UHGV virus genome: UHGV-2031204
DNA: 64,000 nt
Source: a virus
Direction: 5' to 3' (one strand)
Shown in pieces: positions 2,726 to 36,037 of this stretch (within the stretch, counting starts at the first letter, position 1; each line of letters starts with the position of its first letter). The notes under the pieces are model-generated. The model was not told where the DNA came from. It was given only the letters and a program-made list of their open reading frames with translations, and did no database searches. A program made the translations under genes and the position numbers.

Positions 2726-3235
2726 ATGGCAACTAAAGATATTTCGACACAAGATGAGCGCCCGGCAGCTGTAAGACGCGCTGAGGAAAATGCGGTAAAT
2801 TACAGCCAAGATGACGCGTACCAGGTGCGACTTATTGCTACTCAGCTCGATGAGGCTGGCGGGGCAATTAGCCAAAATAAACCGAAAGATACCCCAGAAG
2901 CTGACGACGCTTTCCGTAAGTTACATCAATCGTTCCGTACGTTGTTTGAACTTCGTGGTCAGGCATTCATTGATGCGTTCAATGTGTTCGTTGAGGCTGC
3001 AATTAAACACAAGCGTGGTATCTTCTACTATCCTAATGTGAACTACCATTTAGATTGGTTTTACGATTCTGCTGAACGTGAAACATATGTCGTGTTTATC
3101 AACATGTTAGTACGCTTCGCAAATTCTCAGGATAAAGCAAACTTTGCTCAGCGTGACAACGTTGGACGTTTGGTACAACGTGTGACCGATCCAGAGCTGC
3201 AACACTTGCTGGCTTACTGCTTCAACGCGGCATAA
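2726..3235 (+). CDS. hypothetical protein
   Basis: 169-aa ORF with ATG at 2726, followed by a bidirectional terminator. Confidence 0.8.
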   Translation: MATKDISTQDERPAAVRRAEENAVNYSQDDAYQVRLIATQLDEAGGAISQNKPKDTPEADDAFRKLHQSFRTLFELRGQAFIDAFNVFVEAAIKHKRGIFYYPNVNYHLDWFYDSAERETYVVFINMLVRFANSQDKANFAQRDNVGRLVQRVTDPELQHLLAYCFNAA

Positions 3236-3240
3236 AAGTA

Positions 3241-3283
3241 TTACCCTACTCCCGAAGGAGTAGGGTAACGTTTATTTTTTTAC
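3241..3283. terminator. bidirectional intrinsic terminator between convergent genes
   Basis: Stem-loop ttaccctactcccgaaggagtagggtaa with a T-run on the + side; lies between the + gene ending 3235 and the - gene ending 3280. Near-identical copy at 8599-8626. Confidence 0.7.
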
Positions 3284-5061
3284 CGTGCAGCTTTGATGTA
3301 TTCAAAAGGATCGGTAATCGTTTCTCCTTGTCTACGTAGAAAAGCTTCTAAGACGACATTTTTATCGGGCAATAGGAAGAAATCTGTCGCGATTTCCATT
3401 GCATTGACGCGCCCCGCAGTAAGGTTAATACCGACACGACGCCGTACCTCTTCAGGAACACCGTGAATGCTCAGTAGCTCGATTAACGTTGTTTCACGAG
3501 ACTGGTTCATCATGTTCGTTGCAGATGGGTATGCCTGGGTTAAGTCAGCATCCGCAGTTTGCCCACGGAAAGCCGTGTAGAAATCATCAACTTCTTTGAT
3601 GATGTTTCGTAGCCCATTCTCTGCGTTCATACACGCAGTCAATGTAACAATCCAACCATCCGTCCCAATGACTTCATTGTCGAAATCGTTACGCATCGCG
3701 CTACCCACACAACCGATAACCAGGCCCTGTTCATAGAGGTAATACGTGTATGCAATACAGATTCGCTTCGGCAGAGAAGGGAAAATATCATACATCGAAT
3801 AACCCGCCAAAACTGAAATAGCAGAAGACAGATCGTTCGTCTTTTTATCGAGCAGAACAATCATCAAGTTATCGAAGATGTTATAAACGCAGTATTCTAA
3901 CGGGAAATCTTTCTGCGCCTTTAAGTGCCATTCCAACTTCTCCTCGTAGGGCAGTTCCGGTAAGTCCAACTTGTTTAAACCCAACTCGGTTTCCAGTATC
4001 GCGTTAAGTTTGTAAGAGGGGCGTTGTCCCTCGTGTACACGCAATGAACGGAATAGACACATTGCATCTACACAGTAGAATGACGCCGTACAATAAAGAA
4101 TGTGCCACTGTTGCGAAGGCGCTTTTGTTAATGACTTTGATTCCGTTTTCTTCGATGCTTCGTCTTTCTTAAAGTAGACACGACGGTACTGTTTTGGCAC
4201 GTCAGGATGACAGAAGACGTCTTCCGGTGGAATCCCCGCAGCTTCTAAAGCTTCCAACATACGTGAAATATCGAACTCGTGGTTCCATGCGACGAGTAAG
4301 TCAGGAAGCCGAGGATGGATTTCCTCAAACATCCGTTGAATGCAACAACCTGAATTGAGGCATTCGTAAACGAAGATTTTGTAACCATCGATAACGTTTT
4401 TGTATTTAACGATAGGATTGTCGTTCTCGTCTTTTCCACGAAAAGCGATTTTAGAAAGCAATTCCTGAGCACGTTTGACGAGTCGCGCTTCAAAGTTTTC
4501 ACGCCCACAACGGGTGACGTAGTCTTTCGTAGCAAAGAAATGAATTTCGTCGTCTAAAACAAAACTCATAATCCAGGGGTCTCGAGACTTGTCTTCTTCT
4601 CGAGTTTCCACGTCGTATACACAGATGCGGTTAGGTGAAACAGCATTAGGCCATTTACGTATGTACTTTTCTTTAATCCAGCTAGTAATGGGCAAATCAG
4701 CCCAGTAAACATACGGTGAAGTACAAACCTGACGGAGTGGTTTCTTTTTATCGGGAAAACGAATCCCCAGACCCATCTGTATGGTTGAGGACATCATTAC
4801 GTCCGTTGTTAAATATTCCTGGCACTTACTACGTTCTTCGTATTCTTTCTTTTCCTTGTGATTACGATGTTGTGGTAAAGTAATGTAGATGGGCCGTTTC
4901 AGATTTTCACGCATGACAATTCGTGGGATATATCTGCCATCTTTAGTATGGACGACCTCCTTTATGAGCACGAAGTCGTTTTCTTTCTGCTGATCGGTTG
5001 CGTAAGAAACAAACTTGCACTCCTTGGCAATAACGTCTTCCGGTGCGTAATAGTTATTCAT
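3280..5061 (-). CDS. DEDD-type 3'-5' exonuclease domain protein (possible proofreading or split-polymerase subunit)
   Basis: Translation contains VYDVETREED (Exo I-like D-x-E), WNHEFDISRM (Exo II-like N-x-x-FD) and YCVDAMCL / YNIFDNL (Exo III-like Y-x3-D). No polymerase palm motifs (DxxSLYPS, YGDTDS) seen. Start set at the internal ATG (MNNYYAPED) rather than the track start at 5175. Confidence 0.5.
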   Translation of the reverse strand: MNNYYAPEDVIAKECKFVSYATDQQKENDFVLIKEVVHTKDGRYIPRIVMRENLKRPIYITLPQHRNHKEKKEYEERSKCQEYLTTDVMMSSTIQMGLGIRFPDKKKPLRQVCTSPYVYWADLPITSWIKEKYIRKWPNAVSPNRICVYDVETREEDKSRDPWIMSFVLDDEIHFFATKDYVTRCGRENFEARLVKRAQELLSKIAFRGKDENDNPIVKYKNVIDGYKIFVYECLNSGCCIQRMFEEIHPRLPDLLVAWNHEFDISRMLEALEAAGIPPEDVFCHPDVPKQYRRVYFKKDEASKKTESKSLTKAPSQQWHILYCTASFYCVDAMCLFRSLRVHEGQRPSYKLNAILETELGLNKLDLPELPYEEKLEWHLKAQKDFPLEYCVYNIFDNLMIVLLDKKTNDLSSAISVLAGYSMYDIFPSLPKRICIAYTYYLYEQGLVIGCVGSAMRNDFDNEVIGTDGWIVTLTACMNAENGLRNIIKEVDDFYTAFRGQTADADLTQAYPSATNMMNQSRETTLIELLSIHGVPEEVRRRVGINLTAGRVNAMEIATDFFLLPDKNVVLEAFLRRQGETITDPFEYIKAAR

Positions 5062-5132
5062 GATTTCACTCTCAAATCTAGCGGCTGCTATACTGATTTG
5101 TGGGTAATGTAATTTCTCAAAAGGAAACACAA

Positions 5133-6467
5133 ATGGGATATTGGCAAAATCACATTGCATCAGTTGCGGATGCAAAGGTTGTAGCCGCAGAATCGATTAA
5201 ATTCCAAGACAAAAAGAAGCTGGCAGAATTGGCTGATATTATTGCTAAGTTTCGTGGAGCAGGCGATTTCAGTCCTGCTGGCTACGAAAGTGCCGGGGTT
5301 TCGGATTGGGTATTTAAGAATATCGGCATTACGATTCACTTTAAGAACGGTGGTGAACTGGGTCTTGCTGACGTTGCTTTTGCAGGTGTGGAACCACCGA
5401 AATTGGATGCAAACAGTCCAATCATCGCATCGATGACTCGTGCGCTGTACGCAGGTAACAAAGACCTGGATATGTACAGTAAGTTCATCAAAGAAAACGA
5501 GCTAAACTCAACAATCGATGACAGCAGTGCAAAAATCAGTGGCGATCTGAGCAAAGTGGGTTCTCCGCTTTATCTTACCCCGGTGCTGTTGGAAAAATTA
5601 AATTTGACCGATCTGGAAATCGCCTCGGTGATTCTTCACGAAGTCGGGCACATCTACTATTATTTCCGCACTCTGATGCGCACTGTGGTGACTGATTTGC
5701 TGGCGGATGCTGCGGCTAACCGCATCATGGAAACGGAAGACCAGAATGTCCGCTTGCGTATCGTTAAAGACGTAGAGAAGATGCTGAACACGAAAGTGAA
5801 TCAGCCAGAAACGATTTGTACTGAGTACAAAAAAGAAAACGTCTACATGCACTTGGTCACACAGCTGTTATTAGATCGTCCGTTTATTAGTGGCAGTCAA
5901 GGCTTTGCTAACAGAACGTGGGAACGTGCTGCGGACGATTTTGCTTCCCGTTTCGGAGGCGCTCCTTATCTGGCTTCCGCACTGTATAAAATGGAAACCA
6001 GTTCGTTCTATTTGCTGCGGAACTCAGCGTATATGAACATGGGTGTCCATTTGACAGTAGAACTTTTCCGCGTGACTGCGCTGATAGTCTCTTCTACGAT
6101 TCCAATCATTCCGGTGATCTCCGTGACGTTCGGAATGATCTTAAATGACCCGGATAACACCATTTACGATCCGCCACAGCAGCGTTTTGAGGCAATGCGA
6201 CGTACACTCGTTGAAGAACTCAATACGATTAAAGACAAAAATACGAAAGCTGCTAACGAGCAACGTAAACGTATTTTAGATGGTATTGCGGTTATCGACA
6301 AGTTATTAGAAACCGTAAAAGATAAAGATAACTTGTACCAGTTTATCTGGAATACTTTAACGCCGAAGGGTCGTCGCTCACGTGCTGCAGTTGATTACCA
6401 GCGCGCGATTGGGAAGTATATGTCGAACGATCTTCGTATTGCTTCAGCCATGTTTAATGTCGAATAA
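5133..6467 (+). CDS. putative M48-like zinc metalloprotease with hydrophobic segment
   Basis: HExxH at ILHEVGHIYY, then downstream ERAADDFASRFGG resembling the M48/HtpX third-ligand E-x-x-A-D motif; probable TM stretch LIVSSTIPIIPVISVTFGMIL. ATG at 5133 preceded by aaaaggaaac. Confidence 0.45.
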   Translation: MGYWQNHIASVADAKVVAAESIKFQDKKKLAELADIIAKFRGAGDFSPAGYESAGVSDWVFKNIGITIHFKNGGELGLADVAFAGVEPPKLDANSPIIASMTRALYAGNKDLDMYSKFIKENELNSTIDDSSAKISGDLSKVGSPLYLTPVLLEKLNLTDLEIASVILHEVGHIYYYFRTLMRTVVTDLLADAAANRIMETEDQNVRLRIVKDVEKMLNTKVNQPETICTEYKKENVYMHLVTQLLLDRPFISGSQGFANRTWERAADDFASRFGGAPYLASALYKMETSSFYLLRNSAYMNMGVHLTVELFRVTALIVSSTIPIIPVISVTFGMILNDPDNTIYDPPQQRFEAMRRTLVEELNTIKDKNTKAANEQRKRILDGIAVIDKLLETVKDKDNLYQFIWNTLTPKGRRSRAAVDYQRAIGKYMSNDLRIASAMFNVE

Positions 6468-28650: not shown

Positions 28651-30213
28651 TCAAAAGAGTTCGTCACCCATGCCGCCGGTAAATACGTTAATCGACGAGG
28701 CTGTTACAGTTTCTTCTTTATCACAATCCCATGGCAAAATGCCAACATCACGGAAAGGTATTACAGTATAATGATAAGCTTCTTTGGTATCAATAATGGT
28801 ACGGTGTTTACCGCGTTGTACTTCTAAATAGCTGTGTCCGCTGACGACACGTTTGTTAAAATACATCTCACCGTCAGCTTCGTTGTCTAAGCTAGAGCAG
28901 TTGTCGTAAAGACCACGACCAGGTAAGCTCTTACAGAAACTTGCTGGGTCGAGTGCTTTTAATTTTTTGCCTTCTGGTGAGATTTGGTGTGGTGCTAAGA
29001 GGAAACCACGATTACGTACCACTTGGATGTTTCGCGCGATACGATAAATTTCTTTAATGTCACTACCCGCAATACCGTTACCGTGCCCTGCTTTGCTGAT
29101 AGTACCGAAATAGTCTCCGCGTATTCCAGCTACATGATAACCTCGACGTTTTAGATCTAAAATCAAATCATTCAAATAGTGAATTTTAAAATCGGAGTTT
29201 GTGTGTTTTTGGAAAATATACTCCCAACCGTTTGCCCGCATTTTACTACAGAGGTAATCTGACATTTGTGCATTGTGTAGCGCTTTTTCTTCGTCAGTTG
29301 CCGTTTCAGGTGCAACCATTACCGGAGCTGTACCTTCAAAGTGTCCGTAAAGTGCTTGATACGCGTAAGCCAAGTTAACATCTAATTCGTTTTCTAAACT
29401 TAAATCCAGAATAACCGGTTGTAAGTCACCTTTAACATTTGCCATCACCTTTTCTGGGGTGTTGAATACAGGAATGCTAATAGAGAGCAATAAACTGAAT
29501 AATGACTTACAGTTAAAGGGTAGTGCGGGCATTAGCCAGAGTTCTTCGGTGATCCCTTTGTTACAGCCAAGCATTTGGTTAATTGCTTTCCACCCCGTAC
29601 GTAACCCATTACCTGCCGCTTTCTTACTGATAGAGTCGAATACATGTACGAAGGGTGCTTTATTGTCAGTAATCAATTCCCCTACCAGAGAAGGAATCTT
29701 ATTATGAGAGCGTTCACTGAACGTGGATAAGGTATCCTTAAGGTCGTTGAGCGCCGTTTGTAAATCAACACGCGTTTCAGTGCCGTTCAGTGCGCCTAAC
29801 GTACGACCCAATTTTTGTTTCAGTTGTACGCCTTGAATAGCTTGACGTAACTGAAAGTAGTATTGTGCTACTTGGCGATTAAGATGCTCGATGCGTGCTT
29901 CTGGTTCTTCTGGAATATCATCTTCCAGGAATTTGGTAATCGTATCGTATAGAGGACGTATTTGCGTAGTGGCCAGTTTCAAACGTTTCATGACGTTTGT
30001 GTGGTCGTAAGGCATACCGCCGTCTATGATGGATGTGATGATATCCTTGATTTCGACGAGGGCGGCACGTTCGTCACCTTCTTCTGCGTAATCAGGAAGC
30101 TTAGCCTCTAACAGCACTTTTCTTATGATGTCGTGGTCCTTTTCAGGATCGGTCAGAAGACTTTCAGCGTATAATGTGGCTAAGGCGGTTATCAACATCA
30201 TTTTGTTATTCAT
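28651..30213 (-). CDS. hypothetical protein (520 aa)
   Basis: Long minus-strand ORF; no recognisable catalytic motif found by eye. Confidence 0.8.
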   Translation of the reverse strand: MNNKMMLITALATLYAESLLTDPEKDHDIIRKVLLEAKLPDYAEEGDERAALVEIKDIITSIIDGGMPYDHTNVMKRLKLATTQIRPLYDTITKFLEDDIPEEPEARIEHLNRQVAQYYFQLRQAIQGVQLKQKLGRTLGALNGTETRVDLQTALNDLKDTLSTFSERSHNKIPSLVGELITDNKAPFVHVFDSISKKAAGNGLRTGWKAINQMLGCNKGITEELWLMPALPFNCKSLFSLLLSISIPVFNTPEKVMANVKGDLQPVILDLSLENELDVNLAYAYQALYGHFEGTAPVMVAPETATDEEKALHNAQMSDYLCSKMRANGWEYIFQKHTNSDFKIHYLNDLILDLKRRGYHVAGIRGDYFGTISKAGHGNGIAGSDIKEIYRIARNIQVVRNRGFLLAPHQISPEGKKLKALDPASFCKSLPGRGLYDNCSSLDNEADGEMYFNKRVVSGHSYLEVQRGKHRTIIDTKEAYHYTVIPFRDVGILPWDCDKEETVTASSINVFTGGMGDELF

Positions 30214-30763: not shown

Positions 30764-33058
30764 ATGAAAGATACCCGAATCTCTAATCTGGAGAAACTCG
30801 TACAAGCTGGTAACTCGCTGGTACAAAGCGTCATTAGTAACAACAGTGCTGGCGAAATGTGGAACACCATCGTTGCTGGTGAGTCTGTACGTAGCAACAC
30901 GAAAGTTTTTGGTACCCTGCGTGACGATGCTGCACAGCACTACGCAAACGCGTTTGCTGGCGGTAAGAAAATGTCCCACGCTGCGGAAGTTGCTTCTGCA
31001 ATGATTCTGGGTGCTGCTGGTCACGGTATGGACCTGCAAGAAAAAGTAGCGCAAGAATACGCTAAGCCAGAATTCCATAGCCGTTTTAACCTGGACGTTG
31101 CGATTCCTGGTTCCCAAGCTGGTAACGGCGACTGGGGCAAAGAGCGTATGGTTGTTGCTCAGGAATACTACACCAACAAAGATTACGACAAAAACCTGGG
31201 TCTGACCTGGACGCTGAACGTACGTGCTCTGGAAACTCAGTCTCGTTTTGCTGAGACTCTGTTCCCGACCATCACCGTTGACACCAACGATGTTGGTATT
31301 ACCGTACGTACCAAAGTGACCACCGTTTCTCGTGGTGTCATGCACGCGTTACTGACCAAAGACGTTGTTGAAGATCATCGTCGTAACCTGCACGAAGCGC
31401 TGACTGACCACACCGTTCTTCAGGACGAAGCGATCAACATCGTTCCTTACGTAATGGAAACCGGTGAAAACGCTGAATACTTCGTAAGCGAAGATCTGGT
31501 ACCGAACGAATCTGTTCGTCTGGGCCGCGTACCTCCGTACCCGACTAACTACCTGAGCTTTGCTAAAGACACTCTGAACCTGTTCCAGCTGTCTGCGCAT
31601 CCGGGTATCGTTCAGGAAGGTTACGACGAAACTGATGAAATCGCACCGGGTTGTGCTCTGGGCAGCCTGCTGATTTCCGTACGTAAACCGACCGAAGAAG
31701 CGAAAGCAGGTAAATTCATCAAACTGCACGTTCGTGACATGCAGTTCGCAACCTTCCAGCGTCCTGCTGAAGGTGATGGTCGTGAGCTGGTACTGCAATT
31801 CCGTCGTACTGCGTTCTCTCTGAATGCGAAAACTACCGACTGGAAAGGCGAAGCTATTCCGGCACTGAAATCACTGGAACAGAACTCCTACACCCTGCGT
31901 TATGTGATCACCATCAACATGTCTCTGTTCACTACCGGTCAGTTCGGTGGCAAAGTTGACATCGCTGGTCACAAACTGGAAATCGAAGGTCTGTACGACG
32001 CTACCGGTAACAAAGTTGATACCAAATCTGGTACCGGCAAAGTTATCCTGGACGGTCTGAAACTTGAACTGATGGGCTGGCGCTTCGATGGTACTCGTAC
32101 CAACGAAAACCGTCGTACCCAGGGTCTGCTGCTCGACCCAATCTGGGAACAAGAAAACTACAAGCTGCAATACGGTTCTCCGATTCTGACCAAGTCTCCG
32201 GTTGGCGTTGAATACGACGATACCGAACGTCTGGACGACCTGATTTCCGCAGTTAACATCCGTAACGAACAGCTGGCTATCACTCAGACGCTGTCTTACA
32301 CCGAAGCGGTACGTAACGCTGCTGCAAGCATGATCACTCCGTGGGACAAACCGGCCATTCGTGGTCTGGGCCGTCACTGGGTTGCTCCGTGGTTCAAAGA
32401 GTCTGACTACAACGTTGATGAAGTTGTACAGTCCCTGGATACCAAAGATGCACTGATCAACGCTCGTCAGGGCCTGGTACAGCGTATCGGTAATCAGGTA
32501 ACTCAGGCTATCCAGGAATCTCGCTTCATTCCTGCGCTGCGTCTGTACACTGCCGATCCGGACATTCTGCCGAAAGTTGTTATTGCAACTGACGAACCGA
32601 CTGCATCTATGCTGCTGCTGGTACAGGGCGACCAACGTCTGCTGGGCGATCGCTACGAATACGAAGTGATCACCACCAACGATGACCGCTGGCGTATCTA
32701 CAACGCAGCTGACGGTTCCTGGACTCGTCGTCTGCAATGGTTCCTGAAAGTTCCGACTGCGGACGATGGTTCCTACAACGTGCTGAACTGGGGTAACCAC
32801 TTCTGGTCTCCGATCATGGTTACCAACATCAACATTCAGCGTAACGGTTCTACCTCTAAAGAGCTGGCCGTACAGCCGCGTAACGCGCACATCTGCCACT
32901 GCCCGATCACTGGTCTGATCTGGGTTAAAGGCATCACCAAACTGGTTGAAGAAAAACTGGCTTACAATGTTTCTGTTGAACAGAACGGTCAGAAACAAAC
33001 CGAAGGTGGTGTAGCAGGTAACGTTGCTGGCGAAGGCAAAGCTGCTGCTGGTAAGTAA
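30764..33058 (+). CDS. highly expressed 764-aa protein; candidate major capsid protein (alternatively tail sheath or phage-nucleus shell protein)
   Basis: Very strong host-optimised codon usage over the whole ORF, unlike neighbouring genes; size compatible with the large capsid proteins of jumbo myoviruses; terminator follows. Function is inferred, not motif-based. Confidence 0.6.
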   Translation: MKDTRISNLEKLVQAGNSLVQSVISNNSAGEMWNTIVAGESVRSNTKVFGTLRDDAAQHYANAFAGGKKMSHAAEVASAMILGAAGHGMDLQEKVAQEYAKPEFHSRFNLDVAIPGSQAGNGDWGKERMVVAQEYYTNKDYDKNLGLTWTLNVRALETQSRFAETLFPTITVDTNDVGITVRTKVTTVSRGVMHALLTKDVVEDHRRNLHEALTDHTVLQDEAINIVPYVMETGENAEYFVSEDLVPNESVRLGRVPPYPTNYLSFAKDTLNLFQLSAHPGIVQEGYDETDEIAPGCALGSLLISVRKPTEEAKAGKFIKLHVRDMQFATFQRPAEGDGRELVLQFRRTAFSLNAKTTDWKGEAIPALKSLEQNSYTLRYVITINMSLFTTGQFGGKVDIAGHKLEIEGLYDATGNKVDTKSGTGKVILDGLKLELMGWRFDGTRTNENRRTQGLLLDPIWEQENYKLQYGSPILTKSPVGVEYDDTERLDDLISAVNIRNEQLAITQTLSYTEAVRNAAASMITPWDKPAIRGLGRHWVAPWFKESDYNVDEVVQSLDTKDALINARQGLVQRIGNQVTQAIQESRFIPALRLYTADPDILPKVVIATDEPTASMLLLVQGDQRLLGDRYEYEVITTNDDRWRIYNAADGSWTRRLQWFLKVPTADDGSYNVLNWGNHFWSPIMVTNINIQRNGSTSKELAVQPRNAHICHCPITGLIWVKGITKLVEEKLAYNVSVEQNGQKQTEGGVAGNVAGEGKAAAGK

Positions 33059-34261: not shown

Positions 34262-36037
34262 GTGTTTAAAGATGCAATCAAAAAGCTTAAAGAGAATGGT
34301 AAAATAGTACCCTTTAACCGTGCGATTGCGGAAGGAGTCGGTTATACACAAGCCAAAGATGGTATTCACGATCGTGTACATCGTATCTTGAAACGTGAGC
34401 TAGATTACCATCCTGTAGAGAACCCTCGTGTTCCTGAAGGTTTGGCCGTGTTGGGTGTTCGTTTAATGTCGCCGTTCGAAACTTTTATCTATAAGCTGTC
34501 TCGTTCAGAGAGCAGCAGGATGGATAAGCGTCGTGGGGTGATGTCAATCGCGAATACAGATGCGTATATGGTCATGTCGTCGTTCCGTATTCCTGGAGAC
34601 TCAAGACCAATCTCAAGACCGATTAACTTGCCATTCATTCGTCGTGGTGGGTTGATGAACTATTACGGAACAACGTATCATGTTGCACCTGTTATTCATC
34701 AGCCGGGTATCTGTCGTGAGCACGGCGGGGTGTTTGTTAATTTTGACTTTAAACGTAAAGCGTCATTAAAATTCTGTAAGCACCCGGTACGGATTTTAGT
34801 GAATGGGAAGAAAGAAGAGTTGTTCTTACCCGGAACAAACAATTTGTTTAAAGCCAAAAACGCCACACATCCTGATACGGACGAAAAGCCGTTAATGTAC
34901 TGGCTATTCGGACGTTATGGATTTAAGGAAGCCATCAAACGTTATACCGGCGTGGATGTAGAGATATATCCTGCATTCAAAGTACCTGAAATCGATCTCG
35001 ATAAAAAAGTAGTAATCAGTTCAGGTGAGCCTAAACATAATCGGTCGATTATGTACGTAGTGACGGTTCCTGCAGAGGCTTTACCAAATCTCGATAAAGC
35101 GGGATGGGATCAAAACGAGCACTTATTACTCGTGGCGATTTCTGCATTCTTTAAAGCAGCGCACTATTATTGCGGAAAGCAAGCGATTAAAAACGGCAAC
35201 GTTGTTCCTTTACCGCCGTTGTTTACCGCGATTAACGAACTTGCAATGGAGGACGATGTTGTAAACCTGAATTCCTCCGCAATTTGGCGGGAGATTTTGG
35301 GGAGAAGTATTGTTGGACTTAAACCGTCCGATATTGAACTGGCGCACAGCATGACGAAACACTATACGGAGTGTGAACGCTACGTTAACTCAACATTCCG
35401 TGGTGAGTTAATGATGTCAGATCCCGATATCCCGGACGATATGGATATGTTTGATTTCTTCTGGTACGCGACGAAGTTGATGGTGAGAACGCGCCTTACG
35501 AAACAAGGTGATATTCCGTCAATGTATGGAAAACGTCTGACCGTAACAGATTACCTGTTATTGGGTGAACGTGGCTTTACACCTACCATCGCTGCGATTC
35601 GTTTCCACTTGGGACAAACGGAAAATCGAACACCGGAGTCTTGTGCGAACATGATACGCAGTGCGTTGAATAAAGACATTGTAACCAGCCTGGTATTACG
35701 CAACATTACCGGCAATGGCGGTGTAAGTTATTTCAACGCTTCTACTGAGTCTATGGTGCTGGGGGTTTCAACCCATGCTATCAGCCAGACAGAAACAGAA
35801 TCAAAACGTAACAGCAAGGGCGGTAAGACGGTTAACCTTAATGACCGGACAAAACATGCCTCTGCATCTCATCTGGAATGTGGTAACGTGTATTACATTC
35901 CGAAGTCATCACCGTTCAAATCGGGTATTCTCAATCCGTATATGAAGACGAACACCCAACTGGTGATGGTACGTAATCCAAAACTCAACGAGTTGATCCA
36001 AGCAACCGAAGAAGACATTGCGAAGATTGGCCGTTAA
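34262..36037 (+). CDS. hypothetical protein (591 aa)
   Basis: Long ORF starting at GTG 34262, 6 nt after aaggag. Confidence 0.8.
   Translation: MFKDAIKKLKENGKIVPFNRAIAEGVGYTQAKDGIHDRVHRILKRELDYHPVENPRVPEGLAVLGVRLMSPFETFIYKLSRSESSRMDKRRGVMSIANTDAYMVMSSFRIPGDSRPISRPINLPFIRRGGLMNYYGTTYHVAPVIHQPGICREHGGVFVNFDFKRKASLKFCKHPVRILVNGKKEELFLPGTNNLFKAKNATHPDTDEKPLMYWLFGRYGFKEAIKRYTGVDVEIYPAFKVPEIDLDKKVVISSGEPKHNRSIMYVVTVPAEALPNLDKAGWDQNEHLLLVAISAFFKAAHYYCGKQAIKNGNVVPLPPLFTAINELAMEDDVVNLNSSAIWREILGRSIVGLKPSDIELAHSMTKHYTECERYVNSTFRGELMMSDPDIPDDMDMFDFFWYATKLMVRTRLTKQGDIPSMYGKRLTVTDYLLLGERGFTPTIAAIRFHLGQTENRTPESCANMIRSALNKDIVTSLVLRNITGNGGVSYFNASTESMVLGVSTHAISQTETESKRNSKGGKTVNLNDRTKHASASHLECGNVYYIPKSSPFKSGILNPYMKTNTQLVMVRNPKLNELIQATEEDIAKIGR

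Follow-up and report, generated by a model that had tools for sequence, protein, structure and literature searches.

The gene at positions 3280-5061 on the minus strand of the 64-kb stretch of viral DNA analyzed here (the window) very likely codes for one half of the two-chain replicative DNA polymerase, a highly divergent member of family B, that phiKZ-like jumbo phages possess. Its product is orthologous to phiKZ gp82, EL gp51, 201phi2-1 gp144 and SPN3US gp44. The window is part of an SPN3US/Asesino-like phiKZ-type jumbo phage (Chimalliviridae) and also encodes a capsid protein of the phiKZ type, a subunit of the nvRNAP and a DnaB-like helicase. The initial annotation, made from the sequence alone, had offered the exonuclease half of a split polymerase as one possible identity, and this is supported by a match to PHROG 3011, by synteny among jumbo phages, by a family-B fold and by published split pairs. 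The gene is of a known kind, and the refinement proposed here is a modest one, the presence of polymerase motif A on the proofreading half.

Gene structure and genomic setting

The gene and the elements bordering it are as follows.

3280..5061, minus strand: coding sequence of the putative exonuclease-bearing chain of a split PolB, 593 aa plus stop, ATG start; laid out as N-terminal domain, DEDDy 3'-5' exonuclease, first palm segment with motif A, and lineage-specific helical C-terminus
5062..5132, no strand assigned: divergent intergenic region upstream of the gene, 71 bp, with a conserved block TTACCCACAAATCAGTATAG and a GAGAG ribosome-binding-like element
3240..3269, no strand assigned: G+C-rich hairpin resembling a bidirectional terminator, 13-bp stem, 4-nt loop, T-runs on both strands, by consensus scan only

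The reading frame is uninterrupted. A longer version, starting with a TTG at 5175, was dropped in favor of the ATG because all homologues begin at that ATG. A mere 71 bp separate this codon from the ATG of the neighboring gene at 5133, and this region, presumed to hold the promoter(s), is conserved in the E. coli p98232 element, SPFM21 and ChrisDB. The gene had been described as an isolated minus-strand unit, and so it is, being flanked by plus-strand genes, with the hairpin lying between it and the convergent gene 2726-3235 (plus strand), and with the same layout found in relatives. Both the neighbors and the strand inversion recur in the E. coli p98232 element, in SPFM21 and in ChrisDB; in synteny with the latter two, the gene has a virion-RNAP beta-like gene on one side and a gene for a virion protein on the other.

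Family membership and distribution

The protein matches the PHROG 3011 profile ('DNA polymerase') over its full length (E=5e-250; residues 3-583 to profile positions 2-573 of 576). Homologues are carried by 300 phage (jumbo) records, of which 287 cover at least 80% of the query, and a protein of identical sequence is encoded on two contigs of 0.2-1 Mb. Amino acid identity is 75-80% to the syntenic proteins of Erwinia and Salmonella jumbo phages and about 34% to the phiKZ protein, and 201phi2-1 gp144 is itself annotated as 'similar to phiKZ gp82 and EL gp51'. As many as 748 cluster representatives match the exonuclease-chain profile at E<=1e-30; the best 150 of these are nearly all 545-630 aa in length and match the whole profile, while three over-length matches checked among the cluster representatives carry no Pfam domain. 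Hundreds of clusters at 50% identity show this 545-630 aa architecture, and the full-length homologues that were aligned all stop at nearly the same position. Judged by these sequences, the two-chain split appears to be general for the clade.

Some irregular matches were also followed up. A weak (28%) match in Salmonella phage SPFM6, considered as a paralogue, is really a syntenic orthologue whose protein is badly diverged or error-laden. Two-piece tblastn matches in phiKZ and 201phi2-1, considered as evidence of introns, belong to unbroken ORFs that carry in-frame insertions. Truncated homologues, about 480 aa long, were rejected as a shorter natural form, the one looked at being interrupted by a group I intron.

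The exonuclease site and the predicted fold

Conservation in the exonuclease-bearing chain was assessed over 51 homologues of 25-95% identity. The exonuclease motifs, as numbered in the protein, are these.

4603..4617, minus strand: Exo I, Y149-D150-V-E152-T153, with the DxE metal ligands; aligns with RB69 D114/E116 'FDIEV'
4270..4287, minus strand: Exo II, W259-N260-H-E-F-D264; aligns with RB69/T4 'WNvEsFDi'
3871..3885, minus strand: Exo III, Y393-N-I-F-D397, Yx3D, DEDDy type; aligns with RB69 'YISYNIID'

The initial annotation had recognized Exo I, II and III in the expected order, and the comparison with homologues bears this out, as the motifs can be aligned to those of RB69 and T4 and their acidic residues are invariant or nearly so: D150, E152, Y393 and D397 are kept in 51/51 homologues, N260 and D264 each in 50/51. 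These alignments show a complete predicted DEDDy 3'-5' proofreading exonuclease site (D150, E152, D264, Y393, D397) within the chain encoded at 3280-5061.

The AF2 model of the 593-aa chain has a pLDDT of 82, with residues 1-450 mostly above 90 and the C-terminal 140 residues poorly modelled. Its top Foldseek matches are all family-B polymerases, RB69 gp43, Pol epsilon and Tgo (E about 1e-12, probability 1.00, about 470 columns), so the predicted fold is that of the family-B N-terminal and exonuclease domains. The case for homology is built on profiles and a predicted structure: no model reached threshold in a Pfam and NCBIfam scan of the protein, PF03104 and RNase_T/DnaQ included, and a single-sequence search of PDB sequences returned no match. 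A distant homologue (P0063) does pass PF03104, scoring 26.8 bits where the cut-off is 23.

Motif A on the exonuclease-bearing chain

Two further stretches lie downstream of Exo III in the protein.

3523..3552, minus strand: polymerase motif A, D504-A-D506-L-T-Q-A-Y511-P512-S513 (canonical form DxxSLYPS)
3487..3507, minus strand: N519-Q-S-R-E-T524-T525, counterpart of the family-B 'N-I-S-P-E-T'; aligns with RB69/T4 'NISPET'

The initial annotation saw no palm motifs in this protein. Its statement holds for motifs B and C, which are absent from the ORF, but not for motif A: residues 504-525 (DADLTQAYPSATNMMNQSRETT) constitute a family-B motif A, collinear with 'DLTSLYPSIIRQVNISPET' of RB69/T4, D504-x-D506-LTQAYPS...N-x-S-x-ETT corresponding to DLTSLYPS...NISPET of the T4/RB69 motif A (RB69 405-430). 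Residues D504, D506, Y511, P512 and T524 are invariant in 51/51 homologues, and N519 is kept in 50/51. The family profile matches RB69 gp43 (E=2.5e-7) in three collinear stretches that represent Exo I/II, Exo III and motif A, and hhalign against T4 gp43 gives a probability of 96.2% over one continuous alignment, of query residues 212-523 to T4 residues 173-429, the alignment stopping at T4 residue 429. By itself, the motif-A stretch scores 3.4 bits only (hmmsearch against RB69 gp43), and the proposed assignment draws its weight from the hhalign alignment, from collinearity and from the invariance of the residues. In the single-chain AF2 model the pLDDT is below 50 over residues 495-533, the motif-A segment, which would be consistent with a folding that needs the partner chain. 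As the chain ends about 80 residues past motif A, the 593-aa protein is not purely an exonuclease domain. In the published accounts consulted, motif A on this chain is not mentioned, and the chain is described there only as an exonuclease.

The partner chain

The partner in SPFM21 (SPFM21_00148) matches PF20286 (divDNApol) at E=6e-284 and, weakly and over the fingers, PF00136. In relatives (phiKZ gp50, SPN3US gp18) the fingers of this chain carry motif B (QxxxKxxxNNxxSG), and the chain further has a helical insert 200 residues long, motif C (SDTDS), a KxY motif and a thumb. Across the 32 family members compared, motif B, motif C and KHY are invariant (32/32), as is a further aspartate, D288 (32/32), and no conserved motif A is found. 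The partner profile matches the fingers of Pol zeta, its hhalign match to the single T4 gp43 sequence being weak (E=0.019, KKRY region only), and the partner model matches RB69/T4 gp43 in Foldseek, with the motif-C region modelled as coil at reduced confidence; the assignment as a probable polymerase chain is based on Pfam, the Pol zeta finger match and Foldseek. The position of EL gp21 D229 is occupied by Asn in 9/32 members, the SPN3US-type clade included, and sits in a confidently helical insert of the model.

In relatives, the partner gene is found about 27-29 kb off and on the opposite strand. SPFM21 and the E. coli p98232 element (NZ_CP173450.1), the relatives checked, both carry it, and the closest complete relative (85.5% nt identity) possesses both genes, 26.8 kb apart. 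For matches to the exonuclease-bearing chain and to the partner, the longest contigs are of equal size in six cases. In the 64-kb window itself the partner was not found, either with regular expressions for motifs B and C or by tblastn with the SPFM21 and E. coli partners and T4 gp43, which gave no match outside the exonuclease-chain gene, and PHROG scans of 20 further ORFs of the window gave no DNA polymerase match. As the divDNApol gene lies outside the window, we infer its presence in this genome from the relatives, and by synteny it would be located upstream of the window start. A 100-kb contig carrying a partner cluster (P0069) was considered, and no link between it and the window was established. 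The ORF 34262-36037 (plus strand), considered as a partner for its match to PHROG 2943 ('polymerase') and its DTD, was rejected, being a homologue of phiKZ gp123, a non-virion RNA polymerase subunit (E=4e-18 to PDB 7ogp_E).

A proposed catalytic centre shared by two chains

With motif A on the exonuclease-bearing chain and none conserved in the partner, the gene break most likely falls after motif A, and the active site of the polymerase would therefore be built from both chains. The two chains would associate, probably via the helical extensions that each bears at the break point, the motif-A strand would complete the palm beta-sheet beside the motif-C hairpin of the partner, and the resulting polymerase centre would be composite, while the exonuclease site, whole within the chain encoded at 3280-5061, would proofread the 3' end. 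On balance, we consider it likely that the Chimalliviridae catalytic centre is formed in trans, with D506 of motif A, along with the lineage-specific invariant D504, contributed by the chain labelled 'exonuclease' or 'hypothetical', and motif C contributed by divDNApol. If so, neither chain polymerises alone, and the published placement of the catalytic residues of EL gp21, D229/D398, is wrong for D229.

This proposal goes against two published accounts. Iyer et al. (PMC7824862) call the exonuclease stand-alone and encoded elsewhere, and Kazlauskas and Venclovas (PMC3201878, 2011) name D229 of EL gp21 as a catalytic Asp, giving both catalytic aspartates to the polymerase chain. According to such a scheme, a proofreading exonuclease would dock on a catalytically complete chain, and the segment resembling motif A would be vestigial, with a structural or docking role. 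The extra invariant Asp of the partner, D288, and the weak score of the motif-A stretch alone would fit this. However, the D229 position is not only Asn in 9/32 members but also falls in a helical insert past motif B, the wrong order for a family-B palm, and invariance of D504, D506, Y511 and P512 in 51/51 homologues, down to 25% identity, would not be expected of a vestige. One environmental relative even has a group I intron just upstream of the motif-A exon, with the exon intact. We thus consider a stand-alone exonuclease unlikely.

Far less probable still is a DEDD nuclease acting outside the replicase, whether DnaQ/RNase T-like, degrading host DNA or serving in recombination, the other identity that the initial annotation had left open. 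The gene is monocistronic and far from the polymerase gene, and no curated Pfam or NCBIfam family covers the protein, but Exo III is of the polymerase-type DEDDy form (Yx3D) and not Hx4D, the 593 aa include a family-B N-terminal domain with all top structural matches to family-B polymerases, motif A is present and invariant, and the divDNApol partner occurs in those relatives that could be checked. Hallmarks of DnaQ/epsilon-like DEDDh enzymes, an Hx4D Exo III, a domain of about 180-250 aa and a match to the RNase_T/DnaQ profile, are not seen. That the gene is a degenerate, non-functional remnant of a once complete polymerase gene, as its being shorter than T4/RB69 gp43 and its poorly modelled C-terminal 140 residues might suggest, is barely credible, given the intact frame, the invariance of all catalytic residues and the same 545-630 aa form in hundreds of clusters.

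Implications

As one chain of a two-chain polymerase, the protein belongs to the ordinary replication core of phiKZ-like jumbo phages, and the known gene content of such phages is unchanged. Curated resources serve the exonuclease-bearing chain poorly, Pfam and NCBIfam being without a model for it, and in the RefSeq E. coli record (NCBI pipeline) the orthologue is a 'hypothetical protein', only the partner being called 'family B DNA polymerase'. Because the exonuclease-bearing chain is unmodelled or labelled 'hypothetical', the genomes of the clade seem to possess a polymerase without proofreading. If motif A truly resides on this chain, reconstitution of the replisome of nucleus-forming phages will need both proteins, and any work on active-site mutations or inhibitors will face a catalytic centre made of two chains.

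Comparison with known polymerases

The description of these proteins as a 'split subunit' reportedly goes back to Cornelissen et al. 2012. The pairs SPN3US gp18 and gp44 and phiKZ gp50 and gp82 are treated as a split polymerase (PMC5694885; bioRxiv 10.1101/2024.03.24.586471), with gp50 and gp82 taken as the phiKZ DNA polymerase in the latter, and a split polymerase is also found in PMC5105663. phiKZ gp82, EL gp51, 201phi2-1 gp144 and SPN3US gp44 share with the protein described here PHROG 3011, length class, synteny, and exonuclease and motif-A residues, and differ from it in sequence divergence only. phiKZ gp50, EL gp21 and SPN3US gp18 are the partners, in each case a PF20286 protein encoded on the opposite strand, tens of kb off.

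The single-chain polymerases of T4 and RB69 (gp43, about 900 aa) likewise possess the N-terminal domain, the DEDDy exonuclease and motif A, collinear and in a fold that superposes, whereas the chain described here stops about 80 residues past motif A, with the fingers, motifs B and C and the thumb on a separate protein. Another difference from gp43 is the presence, around the break, of about 170 residues that are specific to the lineage and for the most part helical.

Natural splits are known elsewhere in family B. One example is the split gp43 (43A/43B) of the T4-like phages 133, 44RR, 31, 25 and 65, also made of two separately translated chains, the N-terminal one likewise carrying the exonuclease and motif A (PMC3061061, PMC2988022). 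There, however, the chain is broken in the fingertip, past the first helix of the fingers, and only 2 bp to 3 kb separate the two neighboring genes, whereas the phiKZ-type break would precede the fingers, its two genes lie on opposite strands with about 27-29 kb between them, and the split is apparently clade-wide. Other examples are the split PolB of Methanothermobacter thermautotrophicus and that of Rhodothermus phage RM378, both of them natural two-gene family-B polymerases. The M. thermautotrophicus genes are 85 kb apart (PMC3061061), so here too the distance between the genes can be large, but that polymerase is split within the palm, on the C-terminal side of the fingers, while the phiKZ-type break would be between motif A and the fingers. 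If the catalytic centre is indeed built in trans, this break point is unlike those of the other natural PolB splits named in PMC3061061.

Gene and Phage Identity

The gene for the exonuclease-bearing chain stands alone on the minus strand with plus-strand genes on either side, as initially described, and the same inverted arrangement is found in relatives.

Features of the window discussed in the text
3240-3269: hairpin, 13-bp stem, T-runs on both strands, between the exonuclease-chain gene and the convergent upstream gene
3280-5061, minus strand: exonuclease-chain ORF, uninterrupted, 593 codons plus stop, ATG start
28651-30213, minus strand: DnaB-like replicative helicase (phrog_3213, E=9e-199)
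30764-33058, plus strand: phiKZ-type major head protein (phrog_3231, E=7.5e-281)

A longer TTG start reaching 5175, listed mechanically, is rejected because all homologues use the ATG. Likewise, homology places the start of the plus-strand neighbour (444 aa) at the ATG at 5133, and not at the mechanically listed GTG at 5100. The two ATGs are separated by only 71 bp of conserved sequence, with a GAGAG ribosome-binding-like element at the end of this spacer. One block in this divergent intergenic region (window 5062-5132), TTACCCACAAATCAGTATAG, is kept in the Escherichia coli element p98232, in the Salmonella phage SPFM21 and partly in ChrisDB, and may act as a phage promoter.

From end to end, the chain matches PHROG 3011 ‘DNA polymerase’ (E=5e-250). 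By tblastn, 300 phage records contain it; nearly all are jumbo phages infecting Pseudomonas, Erwinia, Salmonella, Vibrio, Serratia, Aeromonas, Klebsiella, or Ralstonia. Erwinia phage Asesino (79.6% amino acid identity) and SPN3US-like Salmonella phages (75%) match best. The gene order of the window agrees with SPFM21 and ChrisDB, and a virion-RNAP beta-like protein is encoded directly beside the gene. The helicase and head protein genes lie side by side, the replication genes of this phage being scattered among structural genes. Its position identifies the gene as SPN3US gp44, and the annotation of 201phi2-1 gp144 states its equivalence with phiKZ gp82 and EL gp51. As SPN3US gp18 and gp44 have been named ‘a split subunit DNA polymerase’ (PMC5694885; also PMC5105663), and phiKZ gp50 and gp82 have been treated as DNA polymerase (bioRxiv 10.1101/2024.03.24.586471), the gene is an already known one, the orthologue of a published component. 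The first of the two initial proposals, the exonuclease half of a split DNA polymerase, is thus correct on the grounds of PHROG 3011, synteny and these orthologues, and was already in the literature; the initial annotation of this gene was largely right.

Six SPFM orthologues (SPFM6, SPFM7, SPFM10, SPFM12, SPFM20, SPFM1) are covered by BLASTP over only 4–23% of the query length and score about 260–290 bits in HMMER (for example, locus L003, 3362-5044). The SPFM6 orthologue is confirmed as syntenic, and the sister phage SPFM21 keeps 75% identity along the whole protein; the six records look like error-laden or frameshifted assemblies.

Exonuclease Motifs and Motif A

Single-sequence searches of the chain against Pfam, NCBIfam and PDB sequences gave no match, a behavior described for this clade in PMC3201878. 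A profile of 51 homologues (25–95% identity) has RB69 gp43 as its best PDB match (E=2.5e-7), in three collinear stretches: profile 128-273 with RB69 91-232, spanning Exo I and II; 329-448 with 270-380, spanning Exo III; and 498-523 with 405-430, polymerase motif A. Against T4 gp43, hhalign joins query 212-523 to T4 173-429 in one alignment (96.2% probability). The AlphaFold2 model (mean pLDDT 82, confident over residues 1-450) finds by Foldseek only family-B polymerases among its best PDB matches (RB69 gp43, Pol epsilon, Tgo; E about 1e-12, about 470 aligned columns), and in the viral structure library jumbo-phage orthologues match best, Bacillus phage AR9 among them.

All three exonuclease motifs initially reported are present in the 593-aa protein, Exo I as Y149-D150-V-E152-T, Exo II as N260-H-E-F-D264, and Exo III as Y393-N-I-F-D397. 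Across the 51 homologues D150, E152, D397, and Y393 are invariant, while D264 and N260 are each kept in 50.

The initial statement that palm motifs are missing does not hold, the third collinear stretch being family-B motif A. The segment Q-T-A-D504-A-D506-L-T-Q-A-Y-P-S-A-T-N-M-M-N-Q-S-R-E-T-T has as its RB69/T4 counterpart M-S-F-D-L-T-S-L-Y-P-S-I-I-R-Q-V-N-I-S-P-E-T; D504, D506, Y511, P512, and T524 are invariant (51/51), N519 is present in 50 of 51, and the spacing from Exo III (D397-D506, 109 residues) resembles the RB69 spacing (D327-D411, 84 residues). The chain therefore runs past the exonuclease domain and includes the first palm strand; its end, about 80 residues farther on, is modeled as four helices. 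D504 (window 3547-3552), two residues before the motif-A aspartate, gives motif A a D-x-D form and has no clear equivalent in canonical family-B polymerases.

In one orthologous gene (locus L007, a contig of JGI metagenome 3300035493) a group I intron (5443-5864; Rfam RF00028, 51.4 bits, E=4.8e-12) separates ‘...GWI’ from ‘VTLPA...’, immediately before the motif-A exon, and four other ‘truncated’ homologues of about 480 aa in the aligned set (P0042, P0044, P0060, P0029) end at this point. An environmental homologue of 894 aa (P0191) has about 330 extra C-terminal residues past the usual end point; the extension has no Pfam match, and the partner is not fused to this protein.

The Partner Chain

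The separate polymerase gene that the initial annotation proposed looking for is not found in the 64-kb window, and is present in the relatives SPFM21 and the E. coli 98232 element, where it was located through synteny; gene order places it upstream of the window start. An ORF at 34262-36037 (plus strand, 591 aa; phrog_2943 ‘polymerase’, with a DTD) could easily be mistaken for the missing half; it is rejected because it is homologous to the non-virion RNA polymerase subunit gp123 of phiKZ (PDB 7ogp_E, E=4e-18).

The SPFM21 partner, SPFM21_00148 (759 aa), matches PHROG 2927 ‘DNA polymerase’ and PF20286 ‘Divergent Family B DNA polymerase’ (E=6e-284), and its residues 85-189 weakly match PF00136 at profile positions 97-190, the fingers; the family profile also matches the finger helices of Pol zeta. 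Invariant in 32 family members are motif B (Q153-x3-K157-x2-N160-N161-x2-S164-G165), motif C (S418-D419-T420-D421-S422), and K497-H498-Y499, which aligns with KKRY of T4. The model (pLDDT 83) has RB69/T4 gp43 as best PDB matches, the motif-C region being coil at lowered confidence. The long helical insert holds another invariant aspartate, D288 (partner-family position, P0064 numbering), in a Y-x-G-D...N block; it, too, has no clear equivalent among canonical family-B enzymes.

Immediately upstream of the partner gene a small SH3-fold protein is encoded (PF20287 SH3DP, ‘phage DNA polymerase-associated SH3 family protein’; L012 9487-9900, L014 32953-33366), a neighborhood that Iyer et al. pointed out, and this protein may be a third subunit. 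No equivalent adjoins the exonuclease-chain gene in the window.

The closest complete record, the E. coli 98232 element (85.5% nucleotide identity across the gene), carries both genes, 26.8 kb apart on opposite strands. This 221,873-bp circular ‘plasmid’ (NZ_CP173450.1, p98232-contig_4, locus L014), part of a RefSeq complete genome of a urine isolate from Egypt, shares the syntenic jumbo-phage gene block; in the 38-kb stretch examined, 35 of 37 features are labeled ‘hypothetical protein’. The replicon may be carried (pseudolysogeny) or may be a co-assembled contaminant. NCBI's pipeline names the partner there ‘family B DNA polymerase’ and the exonuclease-chain orthologue ‘hypothetical protein’; it is worth noting that annotation by Pfam, NCBIfam and PGAP leaves a gap for this chain.

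A Proposed Two-Chain Active Site

Mapped on gp43, the exonuclease chain comprises the N-terminal domain, the exonuclease and motif A, and the partner proceeds from about 85 lineage-specific residues through the finger region, an all-helical insert of about 200 residues, motif C and the KxY strand to the thumb; the break thus falls between motif A and the fingers. Kazlauskas and Venclovas (PMC3201878) have the EL polymerase chain hold ‘both aspartates (D229 and D398)’. In EL gp21, D398 is the second aspartate of SDTD, motif C, and D229 is found in ‘QFADRDLIQ’, following motif B in a confidently modeled helix; 9 of 32 family members, the SPN3US-type clade included, have Asn at its position. Family-B motif A lies before the fingers, at the end of a beta-strand. 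Variable, helical and after motif B, D229 is unfit for this role, which argues that the motif-A aspartate would come from the exonuclease-bearing chain, making the polymerase active site a composite of both chains. The low pLDDT of residues 495-533 (below 50) when the chain is modeled alone, together with the coil at partner motif C, is consistent with such a site and does not prove it.

It is possible that the chain is a docking-only exonuclease whose motif A is vestigial, which fits the invariance data poorly. The second initial proposal, a DEDD nuclease independent of replication, is excluded by the polymerase-type Yx3D of Exo III, by the PolB N-terminal domain and motif A in the same protein, and by the occurrence of the partner gene in those relatives that were checked. 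Decay into a pseudogene is also excluded, as the reading frame is intact and 748 clusters (50% identity) match the profile at E<=1e-30, nearly all of the best 150 over the whole profile and at 545–630 aa.

The sole point that may add to what was known is the placement of motif A on the exonuclease chain and its proposed consequence, a two-chain active site. Other natural PolB splits are known: in the T4-like phages 133, 44RR, 31, 25, and 65 the break is at the fingertip and the genes are adjacent, and in M. thermautotrophicus PolB it is in the palm, C-terminal to the fingers (PMC3061061). Compared with the splits in that paper, the phiKZ-type break, as interpreted here, is in a fourth place, with the same approximate end point in every full-length exonuclease-chain homologue aligned, and, unlike the adjacent genes of the T4-like phages, the two phiKZ-type genes occupy opposite strands with tens of kb between them.
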